The notes under the pieces were generated by a model, which did not search any database, was not told the DNA's origin, and saw nothing but the letters and a program-made list of their open reading frames with translations. Source: an uncultured Alphaproteobacteria bacterium (GTDB lineage Bacteria > Pseudomonadota > Alphaproteobacteria > HIMB59 > GCA-002718135). Taken from it: 64,000 nucleotides of DNA. Location: the NCBI GenBank assembly GCA_902521325.1, contig CABYRE010000004.1, positions 3,743 through 67,742 of the forward strand. The letters run 5' to 3'. Both the position numbers and the translations under genes were made by a program. Positions 17,051 to 39,086 of this stretch are shown piece by piece. The stretch's first letter is position 1. Each line of letters starts with the position of its first letter.

Positions 17051-17065
17051 CTTTTCAATTATTAG

Positions 17066-17100: not shown

Positions 17101-17116
17101 ATATATTTACTCATTA

Positions 17117-18100: not shown

Positions 18101-19239
18101 TGAAGAAATTTTCAATATCATCTATCTTGTCTCAATTACTACTACTGTTTTTTGTTATTATATGGATCATTCCTACATTTGGTCTTTTTATTAGCTCCTT
18201 AAGAGATAAAGATTTGTTAGCTATAAGTGGATGGTGGACTTCCTTAACTACTACAGAAATAAATGAAATTTATAGAATGTCGGGAATGGAAAGCCAAATT
18301 GAAGAAGATGGTTATTTCAAAATTAAAGGAAAGTTATTTGAAGTTAATTCAGGAAAAAAAATAGGAAGTTTTGGTATTACTTCAAAGAAAATTAATGAAT
18401 TTAATATTGGAGATGTAGCAATTTTTAAAGATGAAAGTGAAGTACTTCTTGATGAAGATGGAAATTATGAATGGAGATCAAGAACACAATTTACAAAGAA
18501 AAAAGGTAAAAGATTATTTACTACATCCTTAAGCCCTCCTGCATTTACTTTTGAAAATTATAGAGAAGTTTTATTCAAAGAAGGAATTGGCAGAGCTTTT
18601 ATTAATACAATGGCAGTAGCATTACCTTCAACACTAATTCCATTAATAATATGCTCTTTCTTTGCATACTCCTTAACTTGGATGAAATTTTATGGAAGAG
18701 ATACTTTATTAGCAATAATAATTGCCTCTCTTGTTGTTCCTCTTCAAATGTCTCTAATTCCAATACTTACAATCTATAATGATTTTGGACAATTATTTGG
18801 AGTAGCGGCTAAGTCCTATCCCGGTGTTTGGATGGCACATACTGGTTTTGGATTAGCCTCAACTACTTTTCTATTAAGAAATTTTTTAAAAAGCTTACCT
18901 AATGAAATGATGGAAGCTGCTAAAGTTGATGGTGCTTCTCATTATGATATTTTTTTACGCATAATTATTCCTCTTTCGATACCAGCTTTTGCTTCAATAT
19001 TTATTTTACAATTTTTATGGTGTTGGAATGATCTTTTAGTAGGTTTAGTATTTTTAGATCAGGTTCCAAGTGAAATAATATTAACCGCAAAATTAAAAGA
19101 ATTACTTGGATCTAGAGGAGAAAACTGGGAAATTTTAACTACTGGAGCTTTTGTATCAATGACCGTACCTTTATTTATCTTTTTTGCCTTACAGAGATAT
19201 TTTATACGAGGTTTAGTAGCTGGATCAGTGAAAGGGTAA
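18100..19239 (+). CDS. Sugar ABC transporter permease (MalG/UgpE-like) with enlarged first periplasmic loop
   Basis: EAA loop EAAKVDGASHYDIFLRIIIP and a TAATG junction with the upstream permease. About 130 residues lie between TM1 and TM2. Confidence 0.88.
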   Translation: MKKFSISSILSQLLLLFFVIIWIIPTFGLFISSLRDKDLLAISGWWTSLTTTEINEIYRMSGMESQIEEDGYFKIKGKLFEVNSGKKIGSFGITSKKINEFNIGDVAIFKDESEVLLDEDGNYEWRSRTQFTKKKGKRLFTTSLSPPAFTFENYREVLFKEGIGRAFINTMAVALPSTLIPLIICSFFAYSLTWMKFYGRDTLLAIIIASLVVPLQMSLIPILTIYNDFGQLFGVAAKSYPGVWMAHTGFGLASTTFLLRNFLKSLPNEMMEAAKVDGASHYDIFLRIIIPLSIPAFASIFILQFLWCWNDLLVGLVFLDQVPSEIILTAKLKELLGSRGENWEILTTGAFVSMTVPLFIFFALQRYFIRGLVAGSVKG

Positions 19240-19252
19240 ATACTAAAAAGTA

Positions 19253-19281
19253 TTGATTTTTCAATAAATATACCTTTAAAT
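19253..19281 (+). promoter_or_regulatory. Candidate internal promoter for the ATPase gene (TTGATT-N17-TTAAAT)
   Basis: Pattern match in a 103-nt spacer, which is unusually long for this operon. Confidence 0.25.
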
Positions 19282-19342
19282 ATAATTATATTTGTATGAT
19301 GATGTATTCATACACTTGAAAGATCGCTCAAAGGAGGATGAA

Positions 19343-20422
19343 GTGGCAGATATAAATATAAATACTGTTAATAAATATTTTGGAGACGTCCATGTAATTA
19401 AGGATATTTCTCTTGATATAAAAAGTCAATCATTCACAGTTCTAGTTGGTCCAAGTGGTTGTGGTAAATCAACTATGTTAAGAATGATAGCAGGACTGGA
19501 AGACATTAATTCAGGTACAATTTCAATTGATGGCCAAGTAGTAAATGATTTACCGCCAAAACAAAGAAATATCGCAATGGTATTTCAATCGTATGCATTA
19601 TACCCTCACATGACTGTATTTGATAATATGGCTTTTGGTTTAAAATTAGAAAAAAGATCAAAAGATGAAATTAATGAAAGAGTTAATGAGGCAGCAAGAA
19701 TTCTTCAAATAGAAGATTATCTTCAAAGAAAACCAAAACAACTTTCAGGTGGTCAAAGACAGCGTGTTGCTATTGGAAGAGCAATTACTAGAAAGCCAAA
19801 AGTTTTCCTATTTGATGAACCGCTTTCAAACCTTGATGCTGCATTAAGGGTTCAAATGAGAGTTGAATTAGCAAAACTGCATAATGAACTAGAAGCAACA
19901 ATGATTTACGTTACACACGATCAGACAGAAGCTATGACCCTAGCTGATGATATTGTTGTACTTGATACAGGTATCGTTTCACAAAAAGGATCACCACTAG
20001 AACTTTATGATAAACCAAATAATATGTTTGTAGGTGGATTTATTGGATCCCCAAAAATGAATTTCATTTCAAGTAAGATATTAAGCAAAAGTTCTGATGC
20101 TACAGAAGTTGATATTATGGGAATGTCAAAAATATCAGTCTCAAAAATGTCAGCGTCATCCTCAGAGGGTGATTCAGTTACTTTAGGCATTAGACCAGAG
20201 CACTTAATAGTAAATGGTGATGCAGATGGATCTTGGGAAAGTAAAGTATTTGTTGTCGAAAAGCTTGGTGACGTTTCTTACCTATACCTTGAAAAAGATG
20301 GAGAGCCATTAGTTGCTGAAACTGAAGGACATTCAGAAATCAAAGTTGGTGATACTGTAAAAGTTGGATTCCCTGCTGGAAGATGCCAATTATTTGATAG
20401 TTCAGGCGAAGCATTTAAATAA
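19343..20422 (+). CDS. Sugar ABC transporter ATP-binding protein (MalK/UgpC/MsiK-like)
   Basis: Walker A GPSGCGKST, signature LSGGQRQR and Walker B LFDEPLS, plus a C-terminal regulatory/TOBE-like domain. Start set at the GTG 5 nt after AGGAGG. The ORF track lists a TTG at 19292. Confidence 0.9.
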   Translation: MADININTVNKYFGDVHVIKDISLDIKSQSFTVLVGPSGCGKSTMLRMIAGLEDINSGTISIDGQVVNDLPPKQRNIAMVFQSYALYPHMTVFDNMAFGLKLEKRSKDEINERVNEAARILQIEDYLQRKPKQLSGGQRQRVAIGRAITRKPKVFLFDEPLSNLDAALRVQMRVELAKLHNELEATMIYVTHDQTEAMTLADDIVVLDTGIVSQKGSPLELYDKPNNMFVGGFIGSPKMNFISSKILSKSSDATEVDIMGMSKISVSKMSASSSEGDSVTLGIRPEHLIVNGDADGSWESKVFVVEKLGDVSYLYLEKDGEPLVAETEGHSEIKVGDTVKVGFPAGRCQLFDSSGEAFK

Positions 20423-24376: not shown

Positions 24377-25477
24377 TTATATTTCTGTCTTTTTATATTC
24401 TGATTTATCTAACCAGTCAGGATTAATCTCGATACCCCAACCAGGAGTATCTTCGATTTTAACCATTCCGTTAGATATTTTAAAAGGATCACCTATAAAT
24501 AAATTCTGTTGCCATGGATAATAATCTTTACCCTCAATTGAAAATTCAAGATAGGGTCCTGAATTATTTATTGCTTTTAAAAAATGCATTGTGCAGATTG
24601 TTACTAAAGATAAATTAGCAGTATGTGGAGTGCATATAAAACCGCCTTTTTCAATAATTTTAGCGACCTTTAAAGCTTTTGTTAATCCTCCCATATACAT
24701 AACATCTGGCTGAAAAATATTTACAATTTTTCTGTTAACCATATCTCTCCAAATTCGCAGATCACAATCCTGTTCTCCCCCAGTTACATCTATCTTCAAA
24801 CTATCAGTAACCTTTTTGGTTTCTGCTGGCTTCCAGTAAGGACAAGGTTCTTCAAAATGAGTGACATTATTGTCTTCTAAAAGTTTGCCAATTTCTATTG
24901 CTTGATTAGAGTTATAGCAACTATTAGCGTCTACCATTTTAATTACACTTTTATCTAAAGATGAGTTTATTGTTTTTACTATACTAGCCGTTCTTCCTTC
25001 CCATTCATCAATCCCCCTTCCACATTCAGAGCCAACTCTAAATTTAAATGCATTAATGCCTTTTTCATCAAAGAGTTTTTTAAATCTATTTGCTTCATCA
25101 TCTGGTGTAATATCTCTTTTCATTGATGAACCATAAATTCTTAAATTACCAGGAGACCCTCCTATCAATGAAACTACAGGTTTACTTTCAATTTTACCTT
25201 TCAAATCCCACAACGCTGTATCTAAACCAGCAATTGCACGTAAAAGATATGATCCTGGAAATTTATGCTCTCTTTCAAAGATAAAATCTTCTAAATCATC
25301 AAAATCAAAATACTCTTTTCCTAAAACCCAGGGTGCTACTTGTTTGTGAAAAATTTGAGCTGTGATATCTGCATGATAAGTTGACATTTGACCATAACCA
25401 ATTGAACCATCCTCAACTGTTATTTTTACAAAACTTACATATGGTTTTGTGAATGTTTCAAGTTTAACAATTTTCAT
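24377..25477 (-). CDS. Enolase-superfamily enzyme (mandelate racemase/muconate lactonizing family, probable acid-sugar dehydratase)
   Basis: Metal-ligand pattern MVDAN / FEEP / GGEQD with N-terminal capping-domain architecture. Confidence 0.8.
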   Translation of the reverse strand: MKIVKLETFTKPYVSFVKITVEDGSIGYGQMSTYHADITAQIFHKQVAPWVLGKEYFDFDDLEDFIFEREHKFPGSYLLRAIAGLDTALWDLKGKIESKPVVSLIGGSPGNLRIYGSSMKRDITPDDEANRFKKLFDEKGINAFKFRVGSECGRGIDEWEGRTASIVKTINSSLDKSVIKMVDANSCYNSNQAIEIGKLLEDNNVTHFEEPCPYWKPAETKKVTDSLKIDVTGGEQDCDLRIWRDMVNRKIVNIFQPDVMYMGGLTKALKVAKIIEKGGFICTPHTANLSLVTICTMHFLKAINNSGPYLEFSIEGKDYYPWQQNLFIGDPFKISNGMVKIEDTPGWGIEINPDWLDKSEYKKTEI

Positions 25478-25480
25478 AAA

Positions 25481-27094
25481 TTAAATCTTATTTAAATCCT
25501 CAATAATAAATTTACTTCCAAGATTAGCAAGCATCATTACAGGGGCATTTATATTACCAGAAGTAATATTTGGAAAAACAGATGCATCAGCAATCCAAAG
25601 ATTCTCCATTCCATGAACTTTTAATCTTTCAGAAACAACTCCCTTTTTAGGGTCTTCATCCATTTTACAAGTACCACACGGATGATAAATAGAAACTGCA
25701 TTAGATTTAAAGTGATCAATCATTTCTTCTTCAGTAGCATTTAAAAGATCATGAGTAACACTTTCATTTCTTATTTTTTTTATACTATTTGTATTCGCCA
25801 AAACTTTAGAAAAATTAATTGCACATTTAACATCATATATATCTTCTTCATGTGATAGAAAATTTGGATCAATCACAGGTGCATCATCAAAATTAGGAGA
25901 GTTCAATGCAACTCTACCCAAACTTTTTGGTCGACAAGAATTATAACCAATAATAAAACCATTAAATTTGTCTGTTTTTAGAAGAGGTCTTTTATTTCTA
26001 TGAGTGATAGAATAAGTTAACGGATTAAAATAAATCTGTAAGTTGGGATAATGATGTTTTGAATGCCAATTTACATATCCCCCAGACTGATTAATACTTA
26101 GTGATAATGGTCCTTTCCTATTATAAATATATTTTAACACAGAAGTAATTCTGCCTGGCCAAGTTCCTAAGGATTTATTTAGTGAATGATGATGCGTTTT
26201 AAATAAATAATCTAACCCAAGATGATCCTGAAAATTTCTTCCAACATTAGAATTATCAATTATTATTTCTTTATCAAATTTTTTTAAATGCTCTTTGTCA
26301 CCAATACCAGAATGCATTAACAAGTAAGGTGTCATTATTGAGCCAGAACATAAAATTGCTCCATGAGATAGGTGTATTATTTGTTCTATTGATTTATTTT
26401 GAATTTTAATACCAATAATTTTTTTATCTTTAATTATTAAATTTTTAACTAGAGTATTGTCTAATATTGTTAGTCTAGGATTTTTTAATACAGGCTTTAA
26501 AAAAACTTTTGATGATGAATGTCTAGTACCGTTGTAAGTATTAATATTATAATGACCTACTTGATTTTCGATTGATGTAGTTAAATTTGTATTTTTTTTA
26601 ATACCAATTTCATTACTAGCATCAAAAAAATATTCTAAAATTGGATGATGATGCTTACTTACATTATTTACTGGAATCTTTTCTTTTGTAAGAAATTCTT
26701 TATCATCATTTATTTGTTGCTCCATAGAACTGTATACTTTTTTTATATTTTCAAAACTCCATTCCTTGTTCTTACCCCAATTCTCATAATCTGTTTTTAA
26801 TCCTCTTGCATACACCATTGCGTTTATTGAGCCAGAACCACCTAAAACTTTACCTCTCGGATAATATATTTGCCTTTTCCATAAATTATCTTGTTTTTCT
26901 GAATAGAAGTTCCAATTAATTTTTTTATTATAAAATGTCATTCCATAACCAAGAGGAACATCAATAATAGGATTGTTATCTTTTGGTCCAGCCTCAATAA
27001 GGACTATATTAAAATTAGTTTCATTAAGAAGTTTATTTGCTATTATACTTCCTGCAGAGCCTGCACCAATAATTGCTATATCAATATTATTCAA
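25481..27094 (-). CDS. GMC-family FAD oxidoreductase (choline/sugar dehydrogenase-like)
   Basis: N-terminal IIGAGSAGS, plus GGSGSINAMVY and the C-terminal HPCGTCKM active-site region. Confidence 0.88.
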   Translation of the reverse strand: MNNIDIAIIGAGSAGSIIANKLLNETNFNIVLIEAGPKDNNPIIDVPLGYGMTFYNKKINWNFYSEKQDNLWKRQIYYPRGKVLGGSGSINAMVYARGLKTDYENWGKNKEWSFENIKKVYSSMEQQINDDKEFLTKEKIPVNNVSKHHHPILEYFFDASNEIGIKKNTNLTTSIENQVGHYNINTYNGTRHSSSKVFLKPVLKNPRLTILDNTLVKNLIIKDKKIIGIKIQNKSIEQIIHLSHGAILCSGSIMTPYLLMHSGIGDKEHLKKFDKEIIIDNSNVGRNFQDHLGLDYLFKTHHHSLNKSLGTWPGRITSVLKYIYNRKGPLSLSINQSGGYVNWHSKHHYPNLQIYFNPLTYSITHRNKRPLLKTDKFNGFIIGYNSCRPKSLGRVALNSPNFDDAPVIDPNFLSHEEDIYDVKCAINFSKVLANTNSIKKIRNESVTHDLLNATEEEMIDHFKSNAVSIYHPCGTCKMDEDPKKGVVSERLKVHGMENLWIADASVFPNITSGNINAPVMMLANLGSKFIIEDLNKI

Positions 27095-27095
27095 A

Positions 27096-28118
27096 TTAGA
27101 ATGTTTGTGTTACTTTAGTTAAATATCTAGGATTGTCTGGATCTAATCCCTTTTCAAAAGAGTAATTAACAACCCATGGATAAAATTTTGATAGTACTAT
27201 TATTGGATCTAATTCTATCATTTCATTAGTGTTATATCTTAATTTTGTATTTGAGTTTTTATCATAGGTAATTTCATAGTGAAGATTAGTTAGTGAAATA
27301 ATTTGACTAGAATCTTTTGCTACTATCATCCCACTTTTATCTCTAAGCGATATAGTAAATAACTTGAATGAGTTTTCTATCAAGCTTTTTGGACCATGCA
27401 TTACTTCAGCGCTACTAAAAGGTTCTATCATTTCTTGACATAACTCTTTAAACTTTAAAGATATTTCATTAGAAATTGCGTATCCAACACCCCTACTAAT
27501 TATATATCCATTACTTATCGTTTTATCTAATATATTTGGACTCCATTGATTTTGATTATCTAAAATTAAATGATCGCTTAGCTTTTCAATTTGCTTATTA
27601 ATATCTTTTTTATTTAGAGTATTAAAAACAAGCTTTAAAATTATCAATAAAGACAAAACAAAAGTTTTTGTTGCTGCAACACTTTTTTCTTCTCCTGCAT
27701 TTATATCAAAAAAATAATTGGATGTTTTTATAATGGGGCTATTTAAATTGTTACTTATTAATATGGTCTTTGCTCCCATTTTTTGGACCATTTTATGACA
27801 TTCGACTAAATCTTCACTTTTTCCAGATTGAGAAATAATGAAAACCAGTGCTCTTGAAAAATCAAATTTTGATTCCTCTAAAGTTATTATAGACGGAGGC
27901 ATGCTATATGTTGGTAAACCAAGATATTTTGCAAACATATAAGACAAATAAAGAGCTGCACAATCTGAAGTACCTCTTGCCACAGTTACAACATAATCAA
28001 TTTTTTTTTCTGATATTAAATTTGATATTTCTTGGTAATTATTTTTATCATTCAAGCTAAAATGATTAATTTTATTTGGAATTGAGAGTGCTTCGGATAA
28101 AACTTGAGAACTAGACAT
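27096..28118 (-). CDS. Double-SIS-domain sugar-phosphate isomerase/deaminase (GlmS C-terminal-like; AgaS / NagB-II type)
   Basis: Two SIS repeats (VARGTSD... and ISQSGKSEDL). 8-nt overlap with nagA. Confidence 0.75.
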   Translation of the reverse strand: MSSSQVLSEALSIPNKINHFSLNDKNNYQEISNLISEKKIDYVVTVARGTSDCAALYLSYMFAKYLGLPTYSMPPSIITLEESKFDFSRALVFIISQSGKSEDLVECHKMVQKMGAKTILISNNLNSPIIKTSNYFFDINAGEEKSVAATKTFVLSLLIILKLVFNTLNKKDINKQIEKLSDHLILDNQNQWSPNILDKTISNGYIISRGVGYAISNEISLKFKELCQEMIEPFSSAEVMHGPKSLIENSFKLFTISLRDKSGMIVAKDSSQIISLTNLHYEITYDKNSNTKLRYNTNEMIELDPIIVLSKFYPWVVNYSFEKGLDPDNPRYLTKVTQTF

Positions 28119-29205
28119 TAATTTTTTTTCCTCTTAAATAAACTTCTTTTAGGTTAAATTCTTTATCTAAAATAAGAAAATTACTTAAAAAATTTTTTTG
28201 AATTATACCAATATTATCTAGATTCAAATATTTAGAAGCATTATAACTAGTTAAAGCAACTGCTTCTTCTAATGAAAAATCCATTGATATTAAATTTTTA
28301 AAAGTTTGATCCATAGTAACAATACTTCCTGCTAAAGTACCATCAGACTTAATTTTTACTGAATTATTTTCTTTTTTTATATTATTTTTTGCAAAAATAT
28401 ATTCTCCATCATTCAGTCCGCTTGCGTTAATAGAATCTGTTATTGTATACAAACCAGGAATACATTTTTTTGCAATTTTTATTGCTTCTTTACTAACATG
28501 AATATTATCACAAATTATTTCAGCATATTTTCCTTTTGAAAGAGCAGCTGATAAAACTCCTGGGGATCTATGATCATTACCAGACATAGCATTATACAAA
28601 TGTGTAAAACCAATTTCATGATCTTTCATAATTTTTTCACAGCAATCAAAGTCTGCCAAAGTGTGACCAAATTGAATCTTAATATTTAACTCCACTAAAT
28701 CATTTATAAATTCTTGCATTCCATCAATTTCTGGAGCTAAAGTAATGATTTTTACATCAGAAATTTCAAGAATTTTTTTTATAAAATCTAAAGATGGTTT
28801 CTCAGTTAAATTTGGTTGAGCACCAAGTTTATTAGGATTTATAAAAGGTCCCTCTAAATGAACTCCAAGAATATTATTACCATTATCTCTCTTTATTTCC
28901 TTAAATCCTTTTAACGCTGTAATAGTATTTTTTAAGGTATTAGTCCAAGTAGTTGGCATTATTGAAGTTGTCCCATGCCGTAAATGATATTTTGACATTT
29001 CAATAATTGATTGTGAGCCCTCCATTACATCAAAACCATTACCACCATGACAATGGAGATCAACAAATCCAGGAATTATAATATTATCATAATCTACAGA
29101 GTCTTTTATTTTCAAGTCGATAATTTTTTCGTTGAAAAATATATCTCCAACATATGAAGAGTTATGATTTATAATTTTCCCACTAATTTTATTTTGATCA
29201 GTCAT
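28111..29205 (-). CDS. nagA: N-acetylglucosamine-6-phosphate deacetylase
   Basis: Motifs DLHCHGG, HLEGPF and THLYNAM match NagA. Confidence 0.88.
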   Translation of the reverse strand: MTDQNKISGKIINHNSSYVGDIFFNEKIIDLKIKDSVDYDNIIIPGFVDLHCHGGNGFDVMEGSQSIIEMSKYHLRHGTTSIMPTTWTNTLKNTITALKGFKEIKRDNGNNILGVHLEGPFINPNKLGAQPNLTEKPSLDFIKKILEISDVKIITLAPEIDGMQEFINDLVELNIKIQFGHTLADFDCCEKIMKDHEIGFTHLYNAMSGNDHRSPGVLSAALSKGKYAEIICDNIHVSKEAIKIAKKCIPGLYTITDSINASGLNDGEYIFAKNNIKKENNSVKIKSDGTLAGSIVTMDQTFKNLISMDFSLEEAVALTSYNASKYLNLDNIGIIQKNFLSNFLILDKEFNLKEVYLRGKKINV

Positions 29206-29260
29206 CTAACTTTAATATCTTATATAGCAATTTCTTGATTTTTAAAAAAATTTAAAAAAC

Positions 29261-29989
29261 TTATAAATGAGGATTAATCTTACTAAATTTTTTCTCTAAT
29301 ATATCATTATTTTTTTTAGCATTTGGCATATTTACACTGATGTAAAATGGGAATAATTTTTCATTTTTTAAGATATTTGCAACTTCAATTAAAATTGAAT
29401 TTAAAATAAAAGATCCGGTAATTGTTGAAGCTGGCCCAACCACTTTGTCTTTAATATTTATAATAGCATCACCAGGTGGAATCTTATTATCAATAAATAT
29501 ATCCGTTATTTCAAATAACCTTTTATTCAATTTAGATAAAGGAGCTTGCTTTGAAAATTTAACAGATGTTAGTGAAATAGTTTTTATTTTCTTTTTCTTA
29601 GCAATCAAAGCCGCTTCTACTGGTGCGTGATTGACACCCGAATTAGATACAATCATCAAAATATCTTTGCTAGTAATTTTATATTTAGCTAGAGCTTTTT
29701 TTGCAATATTTGGAGTTCTTTCAAGAGCAGTAGCTTTTCTTGCTCCTTTTTTAAAACTGAGATCATCATCTCTTATTGGGCATGCTGCAGCAAAACCTCC
29801 TGCTCTGTGAAATGACTCTTCTCCAAGTAATCTAGAGTGTCCAGTTCCAAAAATATATAACTGCCCACCCTTTTTATATGATTTACTAATTAACTTAGCA
29901 CACTGTAAGAATTTTTTTTCTTCTTCTTTTAATATCTTCTTTAAAATCGAATTTATCTTTGATGAATATGATCTTATTAATTTACTCAT
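29261..29989 (-). CDS. SIS-domain protein (UPF0309 type)
   Basis: Single SIS fold with FGTGHS and VSNSGVN blocks. Confidence 0.65.
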   Translation of the reverse strand: MSKLIRSYSSKINSILKKILKEEEKKFLQCAKLISKSYKKGGQLYIFGTGHSRLLGEESFHRAGGFAAACPIRDDDLSFKKGARKATALERTPNIAKKALAKYKITSKDILMIVSNSGVNHAPVEAALIAKKKKIKTISLTSVKFSKQAPLSKLNKRLFEITDIFIDNKIPPGDAIINIKDKVVGPASTITGSFILNSILIEVANILKNEKLFPFYISVNMPNAKKNNDILEKKFSKINPHL

Positions 29990-30007
29990 TTGATTTTTAA
30001 ACTAGAT

Positions 30008-30030
30008 GCTAGGGCAATATTTGCCCTAGC
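30008..30030 (-). terminator. Intercistronic stem-loop just downstream of the SBP gene
   Basis: GCTAGGGCAA-TAT-TTGCCCTAGC, a 10-bp palindromic stem. No strong U-tract. Confidence 0.45.
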
Positions 30031-30042
30031 AAAATAATGTAA

Positions 30043-31254
30043 TTATTTGTATTCTTCTAACTCTTCAGCTGCTTCAGCTACTAAATCCGCAGCATCTCCT
30101 TCACCAAGAATTACACCTTGGATCATTGAGTTCATAACAGTTTGAAAAGCTTTATAGTCTACAAACAGTGGCTCTGGTCCACCATCACCAATTGCATCAA
30201 TAAACATCATCCAATAATCTTCATTATATGGAGCTTCTTTTCCAATTTGAGGATATTGCATAATTGGAGTTAAGCCCCAATCAGTGTCAAGACTGTATTG
30301 AGAGTCACCTGATGCGATTATACTAGCTATTTCCATTGCCTCTTTCTCAACACCAGTGTTTGAAAAAACAGCAAGACTATCTGTTATTAAAAGAGTACCT
30401 TGACTTCCTTGTGGTCCAGCAGGAATTCTAACTGTTTTTACATTTAGACCTTCCTTATGCTGACCTCTACCCCAAGGTCCATTAATATACATAGCAATTT
30501 TTTCATCATTAAAGAGTTCTGTTAACTGAGATCTCTCCCAAGCCAAAGGACCTTCTTGAGAAACATTTGCTAATTTTCCATAAAATTCTAATGTTTCAAC
30601 TGCATTAGATGAATTTAAAGTTATTTCGTTTGTAACTGGATCAATGACTTGTCCACCATTACTGTATAGGTAATTTAAGAATTGGTGCATAGTGTTATCA
30701 AAATCTTTACCAGCTAGTCCAATTCCTGATGCTCCATCAACATTTTTTGTTACAGCTTCAGCCATTGAATATAGTTCATCCCAAGTTTGAGGACCTTCAC
30801 ATGCAACACCAGCCTTTTCTAAAAGACCACAATTCATGAAGAGTGCTTTAGTAGAAAACGCATGAGGAAAACCCCAAGTTTTACCCATATGAGTAACTGT
30901 ATTTAAGATACCTGGTTGATACATTGCTTGTTGTGAAGCAGGAATATTTGTTTCCAAGATATGTCCGTTTTCTGCAAGACCTTTTAAAGTTCTAGATCCA
31001 ACATATGAAAATGCAACGGGATCACCGGCAATAGCAAGATTGATTACTTTATCCTGACATGTTCCCCAAGGAACAGCCTCTAGAGTTACGTTAACTCCGG
31101 GATTGTCTTCCATATACTTATCAGCTATTTCAACATAATTAGGTCGAAGATCACTACCACAGAATACACCGTGTACGTCAGCAGCATATGCCTTAAAGCC
31201 AACAAGTGAAAGTATAGCAATTGTAAGAAATGAAGATAGTTTTTTGAAAGTCAT
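30043..31254 (-). CDS. Sugar ABC transporter substrate-binding protein (CUT1, family-1 SBP)
   Basis: Signal peptide MTFKKLSSFLTIAILSLVGFKAYA, with GGAGG 4 nt upstream of the ATG. Sits downstream of three CUT1 permease genes. Confidence 0.85.
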   Translation of the reverse strand: MTFKKLSSFLTIAILSLVGFKAYAADVHGVFCGSDLRPNYVEIADKYMEDNPGVNVTLEAVPWGTCQDKVINLAIAGDPVAFSYVGSRTLKGLAENGHILETNIPASQQAMYQPGILNTVTHMGKTWGFPHAFSTKALFMNCGLLEKAGVACEGPQTWDELYSMAEAVTKNVDGASGIGLAGKDFDNTMHQFLNYLYSNGGQVIDPVTNEITLNSSNAVETLEFYGKLANVSQEGPLAWERSQLTELFNDEKIAMYINGPWGRGQHKEGLNVKTVRIPAGPQGSQGTLLITDSLAVFSNTGVEKEAMEIASIIASGDSQYSLDTDWGLTPIMQYPQIGKEAPYNEDYWMMFIDAIGDGGPEPLFVDYKAFQTVMNSMIQGVILGEGDAADLVAEAAEELEEYK

Positions 31255-31329
31255 ATTTCCTCCATTTAAATATAGAACAGAGATAACATTAACAGGCTCT
31301 ATGAAGCAAGTTAGTTTTTGGATATTTCT

Positions 31330-32169
31330 CTAGTTTTTTACTGCCCCAGAAGTCAATCCAGCAACAATATATTTCTGTAAGAAAAGAAAAATAATTAAGA
31401 CAGGGGCTATCCCAACAAGAGAAGCCGCCATCATTTCATTCCACTTAACTGTGGTGTAACCAATAAATTCATATAAACCTGAGGGAATAGGCATGTATTC
31501 TTTCTTCTGATTAAAAGTTATCGCAAATAAGAACTGTTGAGCATAAGATCCTATGAAAGCATATATCCCTACAACTACAAGGCCAGGTGTACTAAGAGGC
31601 GCAATTATGTGTCTGAGTATTTGTACTCTTGATGCACCATCTACAAAAGCAGCTTCCTCTAAATCAATTGGTATTTTTTCAAAGTATGATTTTAATAACC
31701 ATATTGCAGTAGGTATTAAGAAGGCAACACCTGGCACTATCATAGCTTGGTATGTATTTAATAAACCAAAGGTTCTTAAAACTTTATATAATGGTATCAA
31801 AAGTACTGCTCCAGAAAACATATTAATTGCTAATAAAATATACAAAGATGAATTCTTAAAAGGAAATCTAAATCTCGCGTAAGAGTAAGCTGCTGGAATT
31901 ACAAAAAGCAAAGTAACTATAGAAGTTACTGAGGCAAGGAAGAAGCTATTAAAAATATATCGTGGAAGCATTGGTACAGTATTCCACATTTCTCTATATG
32001 CCCAAAAAGATAAATCATCTGAATAAAACTGATAGGGAGAACGAAACAAATGATCTAATGGTCGTAATGAAGCATAAAACATTTCTACAAATGGTAAAAG
32101 TATAAAAGTCATGAAAACTAGTATACCTAAATATAAGATTATCTTTTCGTATAAATTATATTTATCCAA
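31330..32169 (-). CDS. Sugar ABC transporter permease (MalG-like), duplicate copy B
   Basis: EAA loop EEAAFVDGASRVQILRHIIAP. I favour the TTG at 32169, which aligns with the Met start of copy A and leaves a 1-nt gap after copy A's stop. The ORF track ATG at 32208 would overlap copy A by 38 nt. Confidence 0.85.
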   Translation of the reverse strand: MDKYNLYEKIILYLGILVFMTFILLPFVEMFYASLRPLDHLFRSPYQFYSDDLSFWAYREMWNTVPMLPRYIFNSFFLASVTSIVTLLFVIPAAYSYARFRFPFKNSSLYILLAINMFSGAVLLIPLYKVLRTFGLLNTYQAMIVPGVAFLIPTAIWLLKSYFEKIPIDLEEAAFVDGASRVQILRHIIAPLSTPGLVVVGIYAFIGSYAQQFLFAITFNQKKEYMPIPSGLYEFIGYTTVKWNEMMAASLVGIAPVLIIFLFLQKYIVAGLTSGAVKN

Positions 32170-32170
32170 T

Positions 32171-33010
32171 TTAGTTTTTAACTGCTCCTGCAGTAAGTCC
32201 TTCAACAATATATTTTTGTAAAAAAATAAAAACTAATAAAACAGGTGCTATCCCAACAAGAGAAGCCGCCATCATTTCATTCCATTTAACACTTTGATAT
32301 CCTATAAATTCATAGAGTCCAGAAGGAATAGGCATATATTCTTTTTTTTGATTAAACGTAATTGCAAATAAGAACTGCTGTGCATAAGCACCTATAAAAG
32401 CATATATTCCAACTACAACCAATCCAGGAGTACTTAGTGGAGCTATTATATGTCGTAAAATTTGAACCCTTGAAGCTCCATCTACAAAAGCAGCTTCCTC
32501 TAAATCAATTGGTATTTTTTCAAAGTATGATTTTAATAACCAAATAGATGTAGGAATTAAAAATGCTACTCCAGGTACAATCATTGCTTGATAACTATTC
32601 AACAAACCAAAAGTTCTTAAAACTTTATATAATGGTATCAAAAGTACAGCTCCAGAAAACATATTTATTGCAAGCAATACATATAAACTTGTGTTCTTTG
32701 CTGGAAATTTGAAACGAGCATAAGAATATGCTGCTGGGATTACAAAAATAAGTGTTATTACTGCAACTGAAGTTGCTAAAAAAAAACTATTAAATATATA
32801 TCTTCCAAGCATTGGAACTGTATTCCACATTTCTCTATATGCCCAAAAAGATAAATCATCAGAATAAAACTGATACGGTGAGCGAAATAAATGATCTAAT
32901 GGACGAAGGGATGCATAAAACATTTCTACAAAAGGCAGAAGTATAAAAGTCATAAAGATTAAAATACCTGAATAGATAAATATTTTTTCAAAAGTATTAT
33001 ATTTATTCAT
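32171..33010 (-). CDS. Sugar ABC transporter permease (MalG-like), duplicate copy A
   Basis: Same architecture and the identical EAA loop. Start set at M10 (MNKYN), overlapping the upstream permease stop by 8 nt. The ORF track start is 33037. Confidence 0.85.
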   Translation of the reverse strand: MNKYNTFEKIFIYSGILIFMTFILLPFVEMFYASLRPLDHLFRSPYQFYSDDLSFWAYREMWNTVPMLGRYIFNSFFLATSVAVITLIFVIPAAYSYARFKFPAKNTSLYVLLAINMFSGAVLLIPLYKVLRTFGLLNSYQAMIVPGVAFLIPTSIWLLKSYFEKIPIDLEEAAFVDGASRVQILRHIIAPLSTPGLVVVGIYAFIGAYAQQFLFAITFNQKKEYMPIPSGLYEFIGYQSVKWNEMMAASLVGIAPVLLVFIFLQKYIVEGLTAGAVKN

Positions 33011-33902
33011 GAGAAATTTTCTTATTAATTCTTGCAAGTAGAGCTAGGTAGAAACCAGCAAATAAAGTTAATAAAATCATAACAACTACAGCTCTTGCTG
33101 CTCCTCTTCCAAATTTATAATTTCCTAAAGCTTGTTTGTATGTATCTATTATTAATGTTGTTGTTGCACCCCTTGGTCCACCTTCAGTTAATATCCAAAT
33201 TATTTCAAATGAATTGAAAGTCCAAATCGCAGACAGTAATGACATAGTAATTATTACTGGAGTTATTTGAGGAAGGGTAATTTTAAAAAATCTATCCCAT
33301 CTTGAAGCACCATCGCAATAAGCTGCCTCGTATAAATCTCTTGGAACACCTTGCATTGCGGCGAGAAAAAAAACTGTTACCATTGGTGTTCCAACCCAAA
33401 CATCTGCTATTATTGTAGAAATAAAAGCACTTTGCTTGTATGCAAGAAAACCAAATGGACCATCTAAAATACCAGTTCTCATTCCAACACCAGCAATTAT
33501 CCCAAAATATCCATTGTATAACCATAACCAACCCAACATTCCAATTGCAATAGGCACTACCCAGGGAGGCATTACAAGAACTCTAAATATTGATCTTCCT
33601 TTTAAATTCGCATTTAATAAAACAGCTCCAATTAAACCAATAATAAGTTTTAAAGACACTGAAAAAAACATCCAAACAAAAGTTCTAGTTACTATCCCAT
33701 TAAATTTTTTACTTGAAAGCATTTTTTGATAATTTTCAAATCCAACATAATCTTCTCCAGCTAAACTTGAATTTGTGAATGAAAGTCTGATTGTTTCCAA
33801 TAATGGCCATGCAACAATAAGAACTATATAAAGTGCAGCTGGAGCAATCAAAGCATATGCTAAATATGTCTGTGAATTATATGATTTTAATTTTTGTTTC
33901 AT
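33003..33902 (-). CDS. Sugar ABC transporter permease (MalF/UgpA-like)
   Basis: Six hydrophobic segments and EAA loop EAAYCDGASRWDRFFKITLP. Confidence 0.88.
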   Translation of the reverse strand: MKQKLKSYNSQTYLAYALIAPAALYIVLIVAWPLLETIRLSFTNSSLAGEDYVGFENYQKMLSSKKFNGIVTRTFVWMFFSVSLKLIIGLIGAVLLNANLKGRSIFRVLVMPPWVVPIAIGMLGWLWLYNGYFGIIAGVGMRTGILDGPFGFLAYKQSAFISTIIADVWVGTPMVTVFFLAAMQGVPRDLYEAAYCDGASRWDRFFKITLPQITPVIITMSLLSAIWTFNSFEIIWILTEGGPRGATTTLIIDTYKQALGNYKFGRGAARAVVVMILLTLFAGFYLALLARINKKISHE

Positions 33903-33905: not shown

Positions 33906-35051
33906 CTAGTTTAATAAAGAGTCAAATTTATCCCAAGTACTTTTTAAGTCAATTACTTTACCAGTATTTCTAGACTCATCAATTTTCATTGCTACAATTC
34001 CTGCTTCCATACACTCTATTACACCAACTGGTAATTCTTTATTATTTTTTAACAAATAATCATTAATGTCTTTAGCCATTAAACTGTCTGCACCATAGTG
34101 ACCTTTTATTTCTTTGCCAAAAGCTGCTCCATAATCTTCATCAATAAGTACATTATTATTTTCATCATGAGCTTTCATAAATCCTCTAACAAAATCTCCC
34201 TCAATCATTCCTGCAGATCCTATAACTGCAAATCTTCTAAATTCGTCTGGAACTTTCATATTAGTGTGAAAAGATAGTACTGCTTTATTTGCATATTCTA
34301 TTATTGCTACTTGATGATCGACGATATCAGCATCACTATCAAAAACATTTGATTTTGATTCCCAACCTTTCAGCCTGTCTTTTGTATATTGTTCATGAGA
34401 ACCCTCTGGAAGATTATCGGGTATAAAAGATCTTCTTGAACCAAAACTAGCAACTTTAATAGGTCTGCTCTTCGTAATCATTGAATAGAAGTCAATGTCA
34501 TGGCAACATTTCTCCAGTATAAAGCCTCCAGAATATTTTTGTTTTCTTCTCCAGTTTCTCATAAAAAAAGCACCATGCGAGGGTACGATATGTTCTGAAG
34601 CTTCAATCGATATTATATTTCCAATAGCATTTTGATCTAATAATTTTCTCACAGATCTTGCCTGTTGCGAATATCTAAGAACTAAGCCAACTATAATTCT
34701 TTCTTTGCCATATTCTTTTATTAATTTTGCTAACTCAAAAGTTTCTTGTTCGCTTATTACTATAGGTTTCTCAGCAAATATTTGTAATCCTGCTCTTAAT
34801 CCAAGCTTAATATGATCTAGATGTAAATGATTAGGGGACCCAATCATTAACATATCTAGTTTCTCACGATCCAACATTTCGTTTAAACTTGAATATGATT
34901 TATTTGGAAAAAAATTATTTTTCTCAGCAAAATCTTTACCTATTGGCTGAGGATCTACATAAGCAACCATTTCAAAATTTGGATTAACTTTTGAAAATTC
35001 ATTATAAACACCTGCTGTCCTACTCCCAAAACCGACTGCGCCTATTTTCAT
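33906..35051 (-). CDS. Gfo/Idh/MocA family NAD(P)-binding oxidoreductase
   Basis: N-terminal KIGAVGFGSR Rossmann motif and the EKP motif (FAEKPIV). Confidence 0.8.
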   Translation of the reverse strand: MKIGAVGFGSRTAGVYNEFSKVNPNFEMVAYVDPQPIGKDFAEKNNFFPNKSYSSLNEMLDREKLDMLMIGSPNHLHLDHIKLGLRAGLQIFAEKPIVISEQETFELAKLIKEYGKERIIVGLVLRYSQQARSVRKLLDQNAIGNIISIEASEHIVPSHGAFFMRNWRRKQKYSGGFILEKCCHDIDFYSMITKSRPIKVASFGSRRSFIPDNLPEGSHEQYTKDRLKGWESKSNVFDSDADIVDHQVAIIEYANKAVLSFHTNMKVPDEFRRFAVIGSAGMIEGDFVRGFMKAHDENNNVLIDEDYGAAFGKEIKGHYGADSLMAKDINDYLLKNNKELPVGVIECMEAGIVAMKIDESRNTGKVIDLKSTWDKFDSLLN

Positions 35052-35069: not shown

Positions 35070-36932
35070 TTAAAAATTGTGATATCGCCAGCCTAATTTT
35101 TTTAAAAAATCCATAGAATTTAGAAGTGCTGAACGATATTCTATCCATTTTCTTGAAATTTTTCCTTTCCATGCAACTTCTGACAAAGTTGCTAATCTTG
35201 GATTGATCATTTGATCAAAAAATTTTTTATCTGTAATTGTCTCAGACCACAGTTGACCTTGTAACCCTTTTATAAATTCTGATTTCTTTATATCTTTTAT
35301 TGGGTCCCATTCATAAATATCTTTTACTTCAATAGTTGCAGCCCAACAAATACCTCTTTCTTCAGTTGAATTATTATAAGCCATATCAAAATATGTTTTT
35401 TGACCTGGGCAAAGTATAGTCTCAAATCCTTTATTTGTAGTTTCTTTTGCAACTTCTGAATGCTCCCATGAAAAGATCAAACATGATTTATCAATTTTTC
35501 CAGCACTTCCACCCACACCATGATCGATATGAGGAGACACTGCAGCCTCATTCCATGCAGCTGTTCTTTTATTTTTTGATTTTAGAAAATCTATTAAAAA
35601 ATTCATATAGTAATCTTGATATTCCTCTTGTGATTTAATATTATTTTTTTTCATAAACTCGATAATTGCTGGAGAACCTTCCCACGCATTACTTGGTCTT
35701 TCATCAACGCCAACATGAATTACATCATATGAGAAAATATCACTTACTTCATTCAACATATCTTTTAAAAAAGTAACAGTTTTTTCTAAGGAAGGATTTA
35801 TGGTATTATTTTTATACGAACCAACATCTTCACTAACTATATTTGAAGACTGTTCTCTAAGTTCTGGCATGATTTCTAGTAATGCCCAAGAATGTGCTGG
35901 TAAATCAATTTCAGGCATAATCTCGATATTTAATTTTTTTGCATACATAATTAAATCTTTGATATCTTCATGTGAGTAATATCCGCCGTATTTATCATAA
36001 CCACTCCCGTAAAATGGTGGTATTTTATAATTATATCCTCTGTATCCTCCATTTAATGCTAGATTTGGATATTTTTTAATTTCAATTCTCCACGCTTCGT
36101 TATCTGTTAAATGCCAGTGAAATCTATTAAGCTTAAATAATGCCATGTAATTAAATAAACGTTTGATTTCATCAATAGTATAGAATTGTCTTGCACAATC
36201 GAGATGCATTCCTCTCCATTGATATTTTGGATTATCGTGTATTGTACAAATTGGAAGCTTTGTTTGATAGAAAGAAATTAAATGAACTAAAGATATAAGA
36301 CCATATAGCTTTCCACCATAAGTATTGTATTTAATCTCAATATTATCTTTTGTTATCTGCATAAAATATTGATCGTTTAATAACTGATCATCTTTTTTAA
36401 AGGAAATTGGAAATCCTTTTTCAGAAGTAAAATTAATATCCAATTTGGAAATAATATTTTGCAAATTAGAAATAATTTCAATTTCCGTATTTAGATTAAA
36501 TATTTTATTTTCAATATTTATAAATTCATTTTGTAAATGAATTTTTTCTGGCTCAGGAATAATTGGTATAAAATTTTTTGTTTTTAAATCTTCATAAGTT
36601 TTCTTTTTAATTGGTTTTTCAAATATCAAATCTGAAACATTTATATTTAATATACTATTGTTTAATGTATCAATAATGAAAAAACCTTCCGGACCACAGG
36701 AAAGGTTGAAGTTACCAATTTTAGGAATTTGTAAATCTAATAAAATTGTATTTTTTTTTATAGATAACTCGTAATAACGTCCAATTTGCTTAATTATTTC
36801 ACCTCCTGATATAGATTTTATTGAATAAACTAATGAGAAACACAATTTTAAATTTGAATCTACTAATTTATCATCAAGAATAATTTTTAATTTATTTTCA
36901 TTTGTAAAAGATATATTAATTTGATTAGTCAT
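35070..36932 (-). CDS. Beta-N-acetylhexosaminidase (glycoside hydrolase family 20), cytoplasmic
   Basis: Motifs HLDCARQF and HWHLTDNEAWRIE, with a catalytic Asp-Glu pair in HVGVDE. No signal peptide. Confidence 0.88.
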   Translation of the reverse strand: MTNQINISFTNENKLKIILDDKLVDSNLKLCFSLVYSIKSISGGEIIKQIGRYYELSIKKNTILLDLQIPKIGNFNLSCGPEGFFIIDTLNNSILNINVSDLIFEKPIKKKTYEDLKTKNFIPIIPEPEKIHLQNEFINIENKIFNLNTEIEIISNLQNIISKLDINFTSEKGFPISFKKDDQLLNDQYFMQITKDNIEIKYNTYGGKLYGLISLVHLISFYQTKLPICTIHDNPKYQWRGMHLDCARQFYTIDEIKRLFNYMALFKLNRFHWHLTDNEAWRIEIKKYPNLALNGGYRGYNYKIPPFYGSGYDKYGGYYSHEDIKDLIMYAKKLNIEIMPEIDLPAHSWALLEIMPELREQSSNIVSEDVGSYKNNTINPSLEKTVTFLKDMLNEVSDIFSYDVIHVGVDERPSNAWEGSPAIIEFMKKNNIKSQEEYQDYYMNFLIDFLKSKNKRTAAWNEAAVSPHIDHGVGGSAGKIDKSCLIFSWEHSEVAKETTNKGFETILCPGQKTYFDMAYNNSTEERGICWAATIEVKDIYEWDPIKDIKKSEFIKGLQGQLWSETITDKKFFDQMINPRLATLSEVAWKGKISRKWIEYRSALLNSMDFLKKLGWRYHNF

Positions 36933-36945: not shown

Positions 36946-38013
36946 ATGAGTTTTAAAGATATATTTAATATAGATGCAGAAGTAAAGGAAAGTGCTCATG
37001 CAAGAGTAAATTTAATTGGTGAACATACCGATTATACTGGTGGATATGTCATGCCTACGCTTTTGTCTTTTAAAAATACCATTGAGATATCTAAAAATAA
37101 TTCTAATGAATTCACAGTTTATTCTCAATATTTTAAAGAAAAAAAAACATTCAATGATTTCAAAAAATCACGCAACAATGAGTGGGTTGATTATATAAAA
37201 GGTTGTTTGTATATTTTTTTTGATGAATATAAGATTTCATCTAGATATTTAAATATTTATATTTTATCTGATATACCTTTAGAAAGAGGTATTTCATCAT
37301 CTTCAGCATTGTGTGTTGCTACACTAAAAGCACTTAATACTTTTTTTGAAACAAAAATCAAAGATCCAGAAATTGCAAAATTAGCAAAGAAAGTAGAATT
37401 CAACTATATAGGTGTTTCAGGTGGAATAATGGATCAAATGGTATCTTCTATTGGTATTCATGGCAAAGCATTCTTTATGAATTGTAAGAATTTAGAATAC
37501 GAACTTATTAATTTTCCAGAAAATTGGAAATTTTGTTTGATTGACTCTGAAGTACAACGAAATTTAAGAGATAGCTCTTATAATGAAAGATTTGCTGAAC
37601 TCCAAGAGGCTGAAAAAAAACTTGGTGTAGAATATTTGGGTGGAGTTAAAAAAGAAAATTTTCAATCAGATAAATTTGACAATAATACTATTGCAAAAAG
37701 AGCAATGCATGTAGTTTTTGAAAATGATAGAGTGATTAATGCGAAAAAAAATTTAATAGAAAATAATATTTACGAGTTTGGAAATTTAATGAATGAAAGT
37801 CACGAATCATATTCTAAAGATTTTGAAGCATCTACTTTGGATGTTGATTTAATTGTTAAAAGATCTGTTGAATGTGGTGCTTTAGGCGCTAGATTGACTG
37901 GTGGTGGATTTGGTGGTTTTACAGTTTCGTTAATTGAAAGAAATAATTTTAGTAATTGGTATAGTAAAATATTAAATTTTTACCCAGCTGAAAAGATTTT
38001 CGAAGTCAATTAG
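36946..38013 (+). CDS. galK: Galactokinase (GHMP kinase family)
   Basis: Galactokinase signature RVNLIGEHTDYTGG, GHMP motif ERGISSSSA and C-terminal GARLTGGGFGG. Confidence 0.85.
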   Translation: MSFKDIFNIDAEVKESAHARVNLIGEHTDYTGGYVMPTLLSFKNTIEISKNNSNEFTVYSQYFKEKKTFNDFKKSRNNEWVDYIKGCLYIFFDEYKISSRYLNIYILSDIPLERGISSSSALCVATLKALNTFFETKIKDPEIAKLAKKVEFNYIGVSGGIMDQMVSSIGIHGKAFFMNCKNLEYELINFPENWKFCLIDSEVQRNLRDSSYNERFAELQEAEKKLGVEYLGGVKKENFQSDKFDNNTIAKRAMHVVFENDRVINAKKNLIENNIYEFGNLMNESHESYSKDFEASTLDVDLIVKRSVECGALGARLTGGGFGGFTVSLIERNNFSNWYSKILNFYPAEKIFEVN

Positions 38014-39086
38014 GGTTTTAATAACCTTCTAAGCTTACCTTCAGTTACATCATGGTCAATATAACATCCTTGTAGATGTCTAAAACCAGTATTTGGATCA
38101 AATTTTGTTCTTCCATGTAATAATCTCAAGTTATCAAACATTGCAATCATTCCTTTAGATAATCTAAATTTAATTTTGAAATCATCGGAATTACAAAGTT
38201 TGAAAATATATTTTCTAGCCTTATAAAAAAGATCGAGATTATTTTCGTCTAATAATGGGACATAATCAAGTCTACCGCTAAAACGAATTTGTCTAAAATT
38301 ATTATTATGATCAAGTTCAATTAATTTTGCTTCATCAACTAGAATAGTATCAATATCTGTAAACCTAAAAGTAACATTAGTATTAGTTAATACTTTATAG
38401 AATTTAGGTTGGTTGTGTTTTAAAAAATTTGCAACGCTAAAACCATCAACCAAACTAGAGTCGCCTCCTGTAGATTCATTCGCAATACAATGAAGTAATT
38501 GAATTCCAGGAACAGGCTTTCTATATGGATTATCCGAATGTGATGTTAACTCTAAAGCAGTATAGGCAAGATCATTTGGATTAGGTTTAGAAACGACATT
38601 AAATAATTTTCCAAAATTTGTTGATCTGACAGGGCCTAATTTTTCAGCAAAATTAATAACTTCATTTTCTTCTGCTTTTGTATTTTTGATTATCACATAA
38701 CCATATTGATAAAATACTTTAAGCATTTTAATTAGCTCATCATCATTCTCAAAAATTTTATTATTATTAAAAATTTCAAGATTATGATTATTTACGTCCC
38801 ATATCTTTTTTTCAGGTATGACATCAATATTATTGATTTCATTATAAAGATCATCGATATTAAAATAACCTTTTGCTCCATCACTAAATTCAACATTTAA
38901 TATATTTTCGTTAATACTATGAGAATTTATAAATAGATTATCATCTAAGAGGCTTGGTTCATATAAACGTTGTAGATTATTTTGGTCTACAAATTCACTC
39001 CCATTTAATCTTTCACGAAGCCAAATACTATGAAGTTTAAACTCTGATAATTTTCCTTCATTAATAGAAATTATTTTTTTTCCCAT
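38010..39086 (-). CDS. Fe(II)/2-oxoglutarate dioxygenase of the gamma-butyrobetaine / trimethyllysine hydroxylase (BBOX/TMLH) family
   Basis: Strong blocks shared with human BBOX1, recalled from memory: HSD facial-triad start, PGIQLLHCI, TGGDSSLVDGF, DNLRLLHGR and RHLQGCY. N-terminal DUF971-like domain (SIWLRERL). Confidence 0.82.
   Translation of the reverse strand: MGKKIISINEGKLSEFKLHSIWLRERLNGSEFVDQNNLQRLYEPSLLDDNLFINSHSINENILNVEFSDGAKGYFNIDDLYNEINNIDVIPEKKIWDVNNHNLEIFNNNKIFENDDELIKMLKVFYQYGYVIIKNTKAEENEVINFAEKLGPVRSTNFGKLFNVVSKPNPNDLAYTALELTSHSDNPYRKPVPGIQLLHCIANESTGGDSSLVDGFSVANFLKHNQPKFYKVLTNTNVTFRFTDIDTILVDEAKLIELDHNNNFRQIRFSGRLDYVPLLDENNLDLFYKARKYIFKLCNSDDFKIKFRLSKGMIAMFDNLRLLHGRTKFDPNTGFRHLQGCYIDHDVTEGKLRRLLKP

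Follow-up and report, generated by a model that had tools for sequence, protein, structure and literature searches.

Two tandem MalG-type permease genes in a sugar importer of HIMB59 alphaproteobacteria: candidate alternative subunits of a single transporter

Type I ABC importers are known to diversify by the addition of binding proteins or by the duplication of whole operons. In the HisJ/ArgT-HisQMP2 and LivJ/LivK systems one translocator is served by several binding proteins, duplication there concerning the soluble component. Among the CUT1 family of sugar importers, mycobacterial LpqY-SugABC encodes its ATPase, SugC, in the same operon, and the Streptomyces importers NgcEFG and DasABC, which take up N-acetylglucosamine or chitobiose, have two permease genes in operons that carry no ATPase gene and share MsiK. 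In the maltose system the tail of the G subunit contacts the ATPase. The literature on duplicated permeases describes whole-operon duplications, such as mal1/mal2 of the Thermotogales (PMC2246101), and the limited searchable literature yielded no account of tandem alternative G-type subunits in a CUT1 importer; a comparative-genomics paper on the AEGEAN-169 group does not mention such a locus. The window considered here, a stretch of 64,000 nucleotides (nt) from contig CABYRE010000004.1 of an uncultured alphaproteobacterium (assembly GCA_902521325.1), carries an operon for a CUT1-type importer in which one MalF-like permease gene (F) is followed by two tandem MalG-like genes, copies A and B, and by a gene for a solute-binding protein (SBP). 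The window has about 30% G+C and is most closely related to single-cell and metagenome-assembled genomes of HIMB59 / AEGEAN-169 alphaproteobacteria, for which streamlining is described (PMC10734472, PMC10308909). Although such a genome sheds redundancy, one membrane subunit alone has been duplicated and long retained here, and the two copies may well provide two isoforms of one importer.

The operon comprises the following features, given in window coordinates.

33003..33902, minus strand: F, a MalF/UgpA-type permease of 299 residues (Pfam BPD_transp_1, 68 bits)
32171..33010, minus strand: copy A (first position, p1, "Q-type"), a MalG/SugB-type permease with an ATG start, 279 codons and a stop
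32170..32170, minus strand: a spacer of 1 nt between the stop of A and the start of B, reading TAA-A-TTG
31330..32169, minus strand: copy B (second position, p2, "T-type"), a MalG/SugB-type permease with a TTG start, 279 codons and a stop
30043..31254, minus strand: the solute-binding protein (SBP_bac_1), 403 residues (Pfam E = 6.5e-30)

The original prediction, made from the letters of the window, had described two head-to-tail copies of 279 codons with a gap of 1 nt and about 89% protein identity over some 30 amino-acid differences, and a recheck of the coordinates and alignments agrees with it throughout. The proteins are identical at 250 of 280 aligned positions (89.6% when the start codon is left aside), and the genes at 675 of 840 nt (80%). 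Between them lie 100 codons with synonymous differences only and 30 with non-synonymous ones, which bears out the many silent differences noted at the outset; by the Nei-Gojobori method, the synonymous divergence (dS) is 1.29, the non-synonymous divergence (dN) 0.082 and dN/dS 0.064. The long stretches of shared protein sequence were also recovered, namely residues 19-68 and the whole EAA loop EAAFVDGASRVQILRHIIAP, which begins at residue 172; the coupling motif EAA-x3-G-x9-I-x-LP, in the loop after the fourth transmembrane helix (TM4), is present in both copies, with AP in place of the final LP. As to where the substitutions lie, the difference quoted for TM2 was correct (residues 79-89, ATSVAVITLIF vs ASVTSIVTLLF), and further differences at 239/240, in periplasmic loop P3, and at 270 and 274, in the C-terminal tail, had been missed. 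The ATG region of copy A overlaps the stop codon of F by 8 nt, and the two products could be told apart by the tryptic peptides ...GLYEFIGYQSVK and ...GLYEFIGYTTVK.

Both copies belong to the MalG/SugB type by fold, and an F-type permease and an SBP_bac_1 protein adjoin them, as a CUT1 system requires. They score 37.6 (A) and 47.5 bits (B) against Pfam BPD_transp_1, above the gathering cut-off of 26.4. The NCBIfam equivalog scores all fall under their cut-offs (MalG 115 vs 261 bits, GlcU 99 vs 340, UgpE 85 vs 297); the copies are members of the family and not orthologues of E. coli MalG, UgpE or archaeal GlcU. The best NCBIfam similarities of F are to UgpA and MalF, both likewise under their cut-offs. 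In an AlphaFold2 model of copy A (mean predicted local distance difference test score, pLDDT, 79.5), six long helices superpose better on the G-type subunits SugB and MalG than on the F-type SugA, with Foldseek TM-scores of 0.83-0.86, 0.78-0.81 and about 0.75, respectively.

With E. coli MalFGK2-MalE the locus has in common the G fold, the EAA loop, a GLTAG-VK tail and a P3 loop that can be aligned with the scoop loop of MalG; its partners are of like kind, namely an F-type subunit and an SBP_bac_1 protein, with a MalK-type ATPase as the putative third. It differs in having two G genes in an operon that lacks an ATPase gene and in an identity of only about 25-28%; moreover, F is short and UgpA-like (299 residues) and is without the large P2 loop of MalF. 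LpqY-SugABC (PDB 7cad, 8ja7) provides the closest solved G structure, SugB (E = 4e-33), yet it has one SugB, and its substrate and gene context differ. The operons of Rhodobacterales such as Flavimaricola marinus (L090) and a metagenome contig (L093) have the same F-G-SBP order with GH20, Gfo/Idh/MocA and SIS neighbours; unlike the window, they hold one Q-type G and include a MalK-type ATPase, a GntR or RpiR regulator and a ROK kinase in the cluster. As in HisJ/ArgT-HisQMP2 and LivJ/LivK, one component is duplicated and the rest is shared, but here it is a membrane subunit that has been duplicated.

The occurrence of the pair was surveyed by scanning one genome per species (GTDB), which gave 77 loci, in each of which the genes of the cluster were located by tblastn. 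Both G copies are complete and intact, in the layout F-G-G-SBP, at 44 of the 77; at six further loci both copies are present but one of them is incomplete, whether truncated where the contig ends or for another reason. The 44 fully covered two-copy loci and the window together make up the 45 genomes referred to below. In every one of these the second copy starts with TTG, 1 nt after TAA or TAG, and the F-A-B arrangement is also found on nine independent metagenome contigs from ENA, JGI and TARA assemblies. F is single at every locus examined and so is the SBP gene, as had been claimed for the window. No nonsense codon occurs among more than 90 G copies, and a frameshift in only one: in the p1 copy of locus L031, a one-base insertion in a T-run at about position 8770 (near codon 257) is either a sequencing error in one single-cell genome or the sole pseudogenised copy seen.

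This distribution bears directly on whether assembly, or the mixing of strains, might have joined two allelic variants of one gene in tandem. The repeat does disturb assemblies, as a false third copy across a run of 100 N in one scaffold attests, and three single-cell genomes carry a single chimeric gene, seemingly collapsed, that switches from one copy to the other in regions of identical tracts in relatives. However, the same junction recurs in 45 single-cell or metagenome-assembled genomes that represent different species, and in contigs that separate projects produced with different assemblers, the mixing of strains is impossible in a single-cell genome, and the copies differ in start codon and flanks. 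An artefact is therefore scarcely credible and has effectively been refuted already, in line with the original prediction, which had asked for the duplication to be sought in relatives.

Some irregular loci were also seen. The apparent triple G copy on metagenome scaffold L079 (1988-2980), which runs as copy A, residues 1-62 of B, 100 N, residues 46-279 of A, and B, was rejected as a mis-scaffold across the gap inside the repeat. At L061 (5050-10538) the orientation of the segment p2-SBP-SIS_2-NagA is opposite to that of F-p1, and the break lies within the G copies; this is either an inversion between the repeats or a chimera of multiple displacement amplification in a single-cell genome. In the metagenome-assembled genome HIMB59-LRMED-199 (L024, 1172-2069) F is split into tblastn segments of residues 1-94 and 95-298, probably through a frameshift or a sequencing error.

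The copies had been described as old, under purifying selection and not decaying, and the comparison of orthologues strongly supports great age and purifying selection of similar strength on both. Among the three groups of two-copy genomes, synonymous sites are near saturation: the proportion of synonymous sites that differ (pS) is 0.58-0.72, and that of non-synonymous sites (pN) 0.03-0.07 per copy. The orthologue pN/pS is about 0.05-0.1 for each copy and accords with the dN/dS between the copies of the window, which the earlier reading had proposed to compute and which lies far from 1. Nor does either copy appear to be decaying, given the single frameshift and the lack of nonsense codons noted above. 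A and B are equally far from single-copy outgroups (pN 0.093 each).

The start of copy B deserves separate consideration, since automatic annotation gives it a shorter product. Public gene calls in all metagenome contigs (loci L078-L087) begin the protein at Met20 and make it 260 residues long. An exact-sequence look-up of copy B gave no match, and its gene context was obtained through copy A instead. It might thus be argued that B is not a full-length subunit, and either starts at the internal ATG or is an untranslated, silent passenger, the more so as TTG initiates weakly and is not preceded by a Shine-Dalgarno sequence. This is improbable, however. All 45 genomes keep the TTG, and always 1 nt past a stop; codons 2-19 are under a constraint in B (pN 0.08 vs pS 0.43) similar to that in A; translation from Met20 would lose half of TM1 (residues 6-35 in the AlphaFold2 model); and the 45 B copies hold no stop or frameshift despite near-saturated synonymous divergence. 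Since the TTG and codons 2-19 are conserved, the product of copy B is probably 279 residues long from the TTG and the deposited annotation of 260 residues truncated.

A search for gene conversion, which the earlier reading had also proposed, revealed that A and B evolve in concert by conversion except at their 3' ends. Maps of the p1-vs-p2 differences per codon, made in each two-copy genome, show tracts of 131-706 nt in which the two copies are fully identical in nucleotide sequence and which lie at different places in different genomes:

L002, L004, L007 and L010: identical block at nt 58-188
L012: identical block at nt 434-686
L013: identical block at nt 469-707
L029: identical block at nt 5-710; the copies still differ after codon 236

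A permutation run test on polymorphic sites was significant in 38 of the 45 genomes after Bonferroni correction, and the pair in the window gave p <= 0.0005. Over codons 21-235, pS between p1 and p2 is 0.46 within a genome as against 0.68 between genomes, so that most of the gene is being homogenised in many genomes. Over codons 236-279 the value within a genome is not lower (0.62 vs 0.51 between genomes), and conversion never crosses this stretch. It is because of conversion that a nucleotide neighbour-joining tree mixes p1 and p2 of group III. The locus would, on this pattern, be a clear case in which selection keeps a few residues distinct despite continuing conversion.

Fixed in all 45 genomes are Gln239/Ser240 in p1 against Thr239/Thr240 in p2, Ala274 against Ser274, and the ATG against the TTG start. 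Nearly fixed, in the order p1 vs p2, are Phe or Leu vs Tyr at 7, Ile vs Leu at 12, Gly vs Pro at 69 and Ser vs Thr at 139, together with the TM2 motif at 81-83, (S/C)-V-A vs V-T-S. In the window the principal positions are as follows.

32291..32296, minus strand: copy A codons 239-240, Gln-Ser, at the tip of periplasmic loop P3; fixed
31450..31455, minus strand: copy B codons 239-240, Thr-Thr, at the same P3 tip; fixed
32762..32770, minus strand: copy A codons 81-83, Ser-Val-Ala, in TM2; x-V-A is typical of p1, of group V and of the p1 copy of L096
31921..31929, minus strand: copy B codons 81-83, Val-Thr-Ser, in TM2; typical of p2 and group IV (A-T-S in the p2 copy of L096)
32189..32191, minus strand: copy A codon 274, Ala, in the tail GLTAGAVKN; fixed
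31348..31350, minus strand: copy B codon 274, Ser, in the tail GLTSGAVKN; fixed

In a family alignment of 48 sequences, Gln239 is the consensus (36 of 43 outside sequences), as is Ala274 (39 of 40), and Thr239 and Ser274 of copy B are therefore derived. Departures from the consensus occur in p2 at Q239, G69, V82, A208 and A274 and in p1 at T139, F104, A270 and L262; as both copies have departed, neither is simply the decaying one. In the AlphaFold2 model, residues 234-242 form an unstructured periplasmic loop between TM5 and TM6, G69 and S139 lie at the periplasmic face, and 270 and 274 are located where TM6 ends on the cytoplasmic side and in the tail. An alignment by HMMER to E. coli MalG places 239/240 opposite Q256/N257. 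Both the contact of the MalG tail with MalK and an exact role for Gln256 have reportedly been described by Oldham et al. (2007). The P3 scoop loop of MalG, residues 236-262, reaches into the sugar-binding site of MalE, and the transfer of maltose depends on it (PMC6906923). The invariable differences thus fall at two places, which in the maltose system are the loop that reaches into the binding protein and the tail.

Taken together, these observations suggest that two tandem alternative MalG-type subunits give two isoforms of one importer, an explanation which, as a whole, has about an even chance of being correct. The locus would be a CUT1-family, MalFGK2-like, binding-protein-dependent importer, probably for sugars that contain N-acetylhexosamine. 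Both paralogues would be translated, B from its TTG and probably by coupling to the termination of A at TAA-A-TTG. Each would pair alone with the single F, the single SBP and a MalK-type ATPase encoded elsewhere, and two isoforms of the transporter would follow from this pairing. Conversion would keep most of A and B alike, and a 3' module made up of the P3 tip (QS vs TT), TM6 and the C-terminal tail (A274 vs S274) would be kept different; the linked TM2 motif (x-V-A vs V-T-S) would usually differ too. As the P3 residues align with the scoop loop of MalG, the isoforms would most likely differ in how the ligand is taken over from the SBP, in ligand range or in release rate, and possibly also in coupling to the ATPase; the functional difference is here judged from the position of the invariant residues. 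If the isoforms do differ, the locus would be a natural experiment on the scoop loop and on the part of the G subunit in substrate hand-over, and would illustrate how streamlined oligotrophs can widen their uptake for 840 bp.

The main rival is that the second copy is redundant or a matter of dosage: it would raise or secure the supply of G, and the fixed differences would be neutral, conversion rarely reaching the end of the repeat. Several observations lean this way and weigh against functional isoforms. The differences between A and B are chemically conservative (S/T/A/V/I/L/Q), and any functional difference may for that reason be small. Conversion is frequent over codons 20-235, and much of the protein is thus freely exchanged between the copies, from which a broad interchangeability of A and B would follow. 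The unconverted 3' end could be protected partly by mechanics, since it is the edge of the repeat and too diverged for identical blocks. Besides relatives with a single copy, there are three genomes inside the two-copy clade that have one chimeric G, which begins as p1 and ends as p2 (L009, single-cell genome AG-461-E22, 4066-4902; L028, AG-426-C22, 8001-8837; L060, AG-910-K03, 2647-3483), with three different breakpoints. In L009 and L028 the p1 head runs to about codon 208 and the p2 tail from codon 239, and in L060 the switch falls between codons 21 and 69; the breakpoint of L009 coincides with an identical tract of 71 nt in its relative L008. These chimeras look like deletions by unequal crossover, or else are collapses in the assembly of single-cell genomes; if they are real, one copy is dispensable.

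Against redundancy, an extra G would be useless in a 1:1 complex without an extra F, and F is single-copy. Residues 239, 240 and 274 are invariant in each copy over 45 genomes in which synonymous sites are nearly saturated, and neutral sites would vary. Gln239 is conserved through the family and in E. coli MalG itself, and the pairing of a Q-type with a T-type copy recurs with a different junction in L096. Streamlined genomes, moreover, seldom retain neutral duplicates, according to one study (PMC10308909). Weakened by the invariant residues, by the conservation of Gln239 and by the recurrent pairing, redundancy is regarded as unlikely, and the reading as two isoforms is retained below.

The two types of G are also found singly in related lineages, which group as follows.

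Group IV (L041, L047, L048, L050): single G of T-type; F 91% identical to that of the window
Group V (L053, L059, L062): single G of Q-type; F 85-87% identical to that of the window
Group VI (L064-L076): single G of Q-type; F 71-73% identical to that of the window

The motifs of TM2 and the loop are linked across these lineages, the single genes of group IV having V-T-S with TT, like p2, and those of group V having C-V-A with Q, like p1. Each type thus appears to suffice as the sole G subunit in some lineage, which favours a pairing of F with one type or the other over a complex in which all three subunits are required. The alternative translocator assemblies put forward in the original prediction are plausible; indirectly in their favour are these single-G lineages and the fixed differences in the loop aligned with the MalG scoop, which touches the binding protein in the maltose system (PMC6906923). 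An assembly of F, A and B in the membrane, or an A-B heterodimer in place of F-G, would fit the co-transcription and conservation of the three genes and is nonetheless very improbable: related lineages and outside relatives run on F and one G of either type, and F is 92-100% conserved in protein across the two-copy groups I-III. We know of no type I importer with three transmembrane domains.

Outside HIMB59 the nearest relatives are those of the Rhodobacterales, whose G is single, of Q-type and about 60-70% identical to copy A, in a locus with GH20, a regulator, F, one G, SBP, a MalK-type ATPase, Gfo/Idh/MocA and SIS proteins. From this it follows that the ancestral state is one G with an ATPase in the operon. 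A protein neighbour-joining tree (200 bootstraps) recovers a p2 clade at 92.5%, its deep nodes having a support of 2-29%. A second two-copy architecture was seen in metagenome contigs only (L096, 4146-5840, and L097), in which a spacer of 15 nt separates the copies and the second begins with ATG. A Q-type copy comes first and a T-type copy follows, with 87% protein identity between them, and NanE and ROK genes lie downstream; in the protein tree the second copy of L096 is sister to the group IV genes (bootstrap 95%). Either the duplication would predate groups I-V and reciprocal loss followed, or the Q and T pair would have arisen twice.

A bolder and distinctly more tentative extension, which falls well short of an even chance, is that HIMB59 maintains an ancient two-state polymorphism of G, in which swapping the subunit would let a single SBP hand over different ligands. 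The Q-type (x-V-A with a Gln tip) and the T-type (V-T-S with a Thr-Thr tip) would then exist as tandem paralogues in some genomes and as alternative single alleles in others, and the ligands handed over by one SBP could, for example, be mono- and di-N-acetylhexosamines. If true, this would be the first natural type I importer tuned in specificity or kinetics by alternative transmembrane-domain subunits and not by alternative binding proteins.

The remaining genes of the cluster, and the ATPase, are listed below.

35070..36932, minus strand: a GH20 beta-N-acetylhexosaminidase, the first gene of the cluster (Pfam Glyco_hydro_20, E = 5e-98)
33906..35051, minus strand: an oxidoreductase of the Gfo/Idh/MocA family (Pfam GFO_IDH_MocA N- and C-terminal domains)
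31255..31329, minus strand: a conserved spacer of 75 nt before the SBP gene, with GGAGG 5 nt upstream of the ATG
30007..30031, minus strand: a G+C-rich stem-loop of 11 bp directly after the SBP stop, without a T-tract
29261..29989, minus strand: an SIS_2 protein, the first of three catabolic genes downstream of the SBP (27096..29989)
28111..29205, minus strand: the deacetylase NagA (TIGR00221, 243 bits, above the cut-off of 225.65)
27096..28118, minus strand: a NagB-II-like SIS protein (NagB-II model, 228 bits, below the cut-off of 430)
19292..20422, plus strand: a MalK/UgpC-type ATPase (Walker A GPSGCGKS, LSGGQ; Pfam ABC_tran, OB_MalK and TOBE_2)

The operon of F and the two G genes has no ATPase gene of its own. 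The ATPase at 19292-20422, which scores 465 bits against the UgpC subfamily model (cut-off 432), is the sole one of MalK/UgpC type in the window and may energise the system in the manner of MsiK. It is the last gene of a second CUT1 sugar operon (15701-20422, plus strand), with an SBP and two permeases. The SBP encoded downstream of copy B has 7x0i, CbpB, as its best solved relative (E = 2.6e-21); a second copy of its gene was not found in the window, and a ROK-type sugar kinase is absent from the cluster there.

The surroundings of the amino-sugar cluster (24377-27094, 33906-35051 and 36946-39086) hold a GMC oxidoreductase, an MR_MLE enolase-superfamily protein and the Gfo/Idh/MocA dehydrogenase, whose gene adjoins the transporter in Rhodobacterales relatives as well. 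Further genes encode a TauD-family dioxygenase and a galactokinase (TIGR00131, 259 bits, above the cut-off of 226.65). Since oxidoreductase, galactokinase, MR_MLE and dioxygenase genes surround the cluster, the imported substrate may not be plain chitobiose.

The conservation of the transporter genes and of their flanks differs among lineages. In group VI the GH20, SIS_2 and NagA proteins are 89-98% identical to those of the window, but F, G and SBP only 73-80%, with a single G; in group III (L013, L016-L018, L024-L026, L029) the cassette is 91-94% identical, and GH20 and NagA about 57%. This points to exchange of the F-G-SBP cassette (30043-33902 in the window) by recombination among HIMB59 lineages, probably independently of its flanks.

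Finally, the spacer before the SBP gene (31255-31329) is strongly conserved among genomes and reads AACTTGCTTCATAGAGCC.GTTAATGTTATC ... GGAGG. Together with the hairpin after the SBP stop, it suggests separate control or stabilisation of the SBP message.

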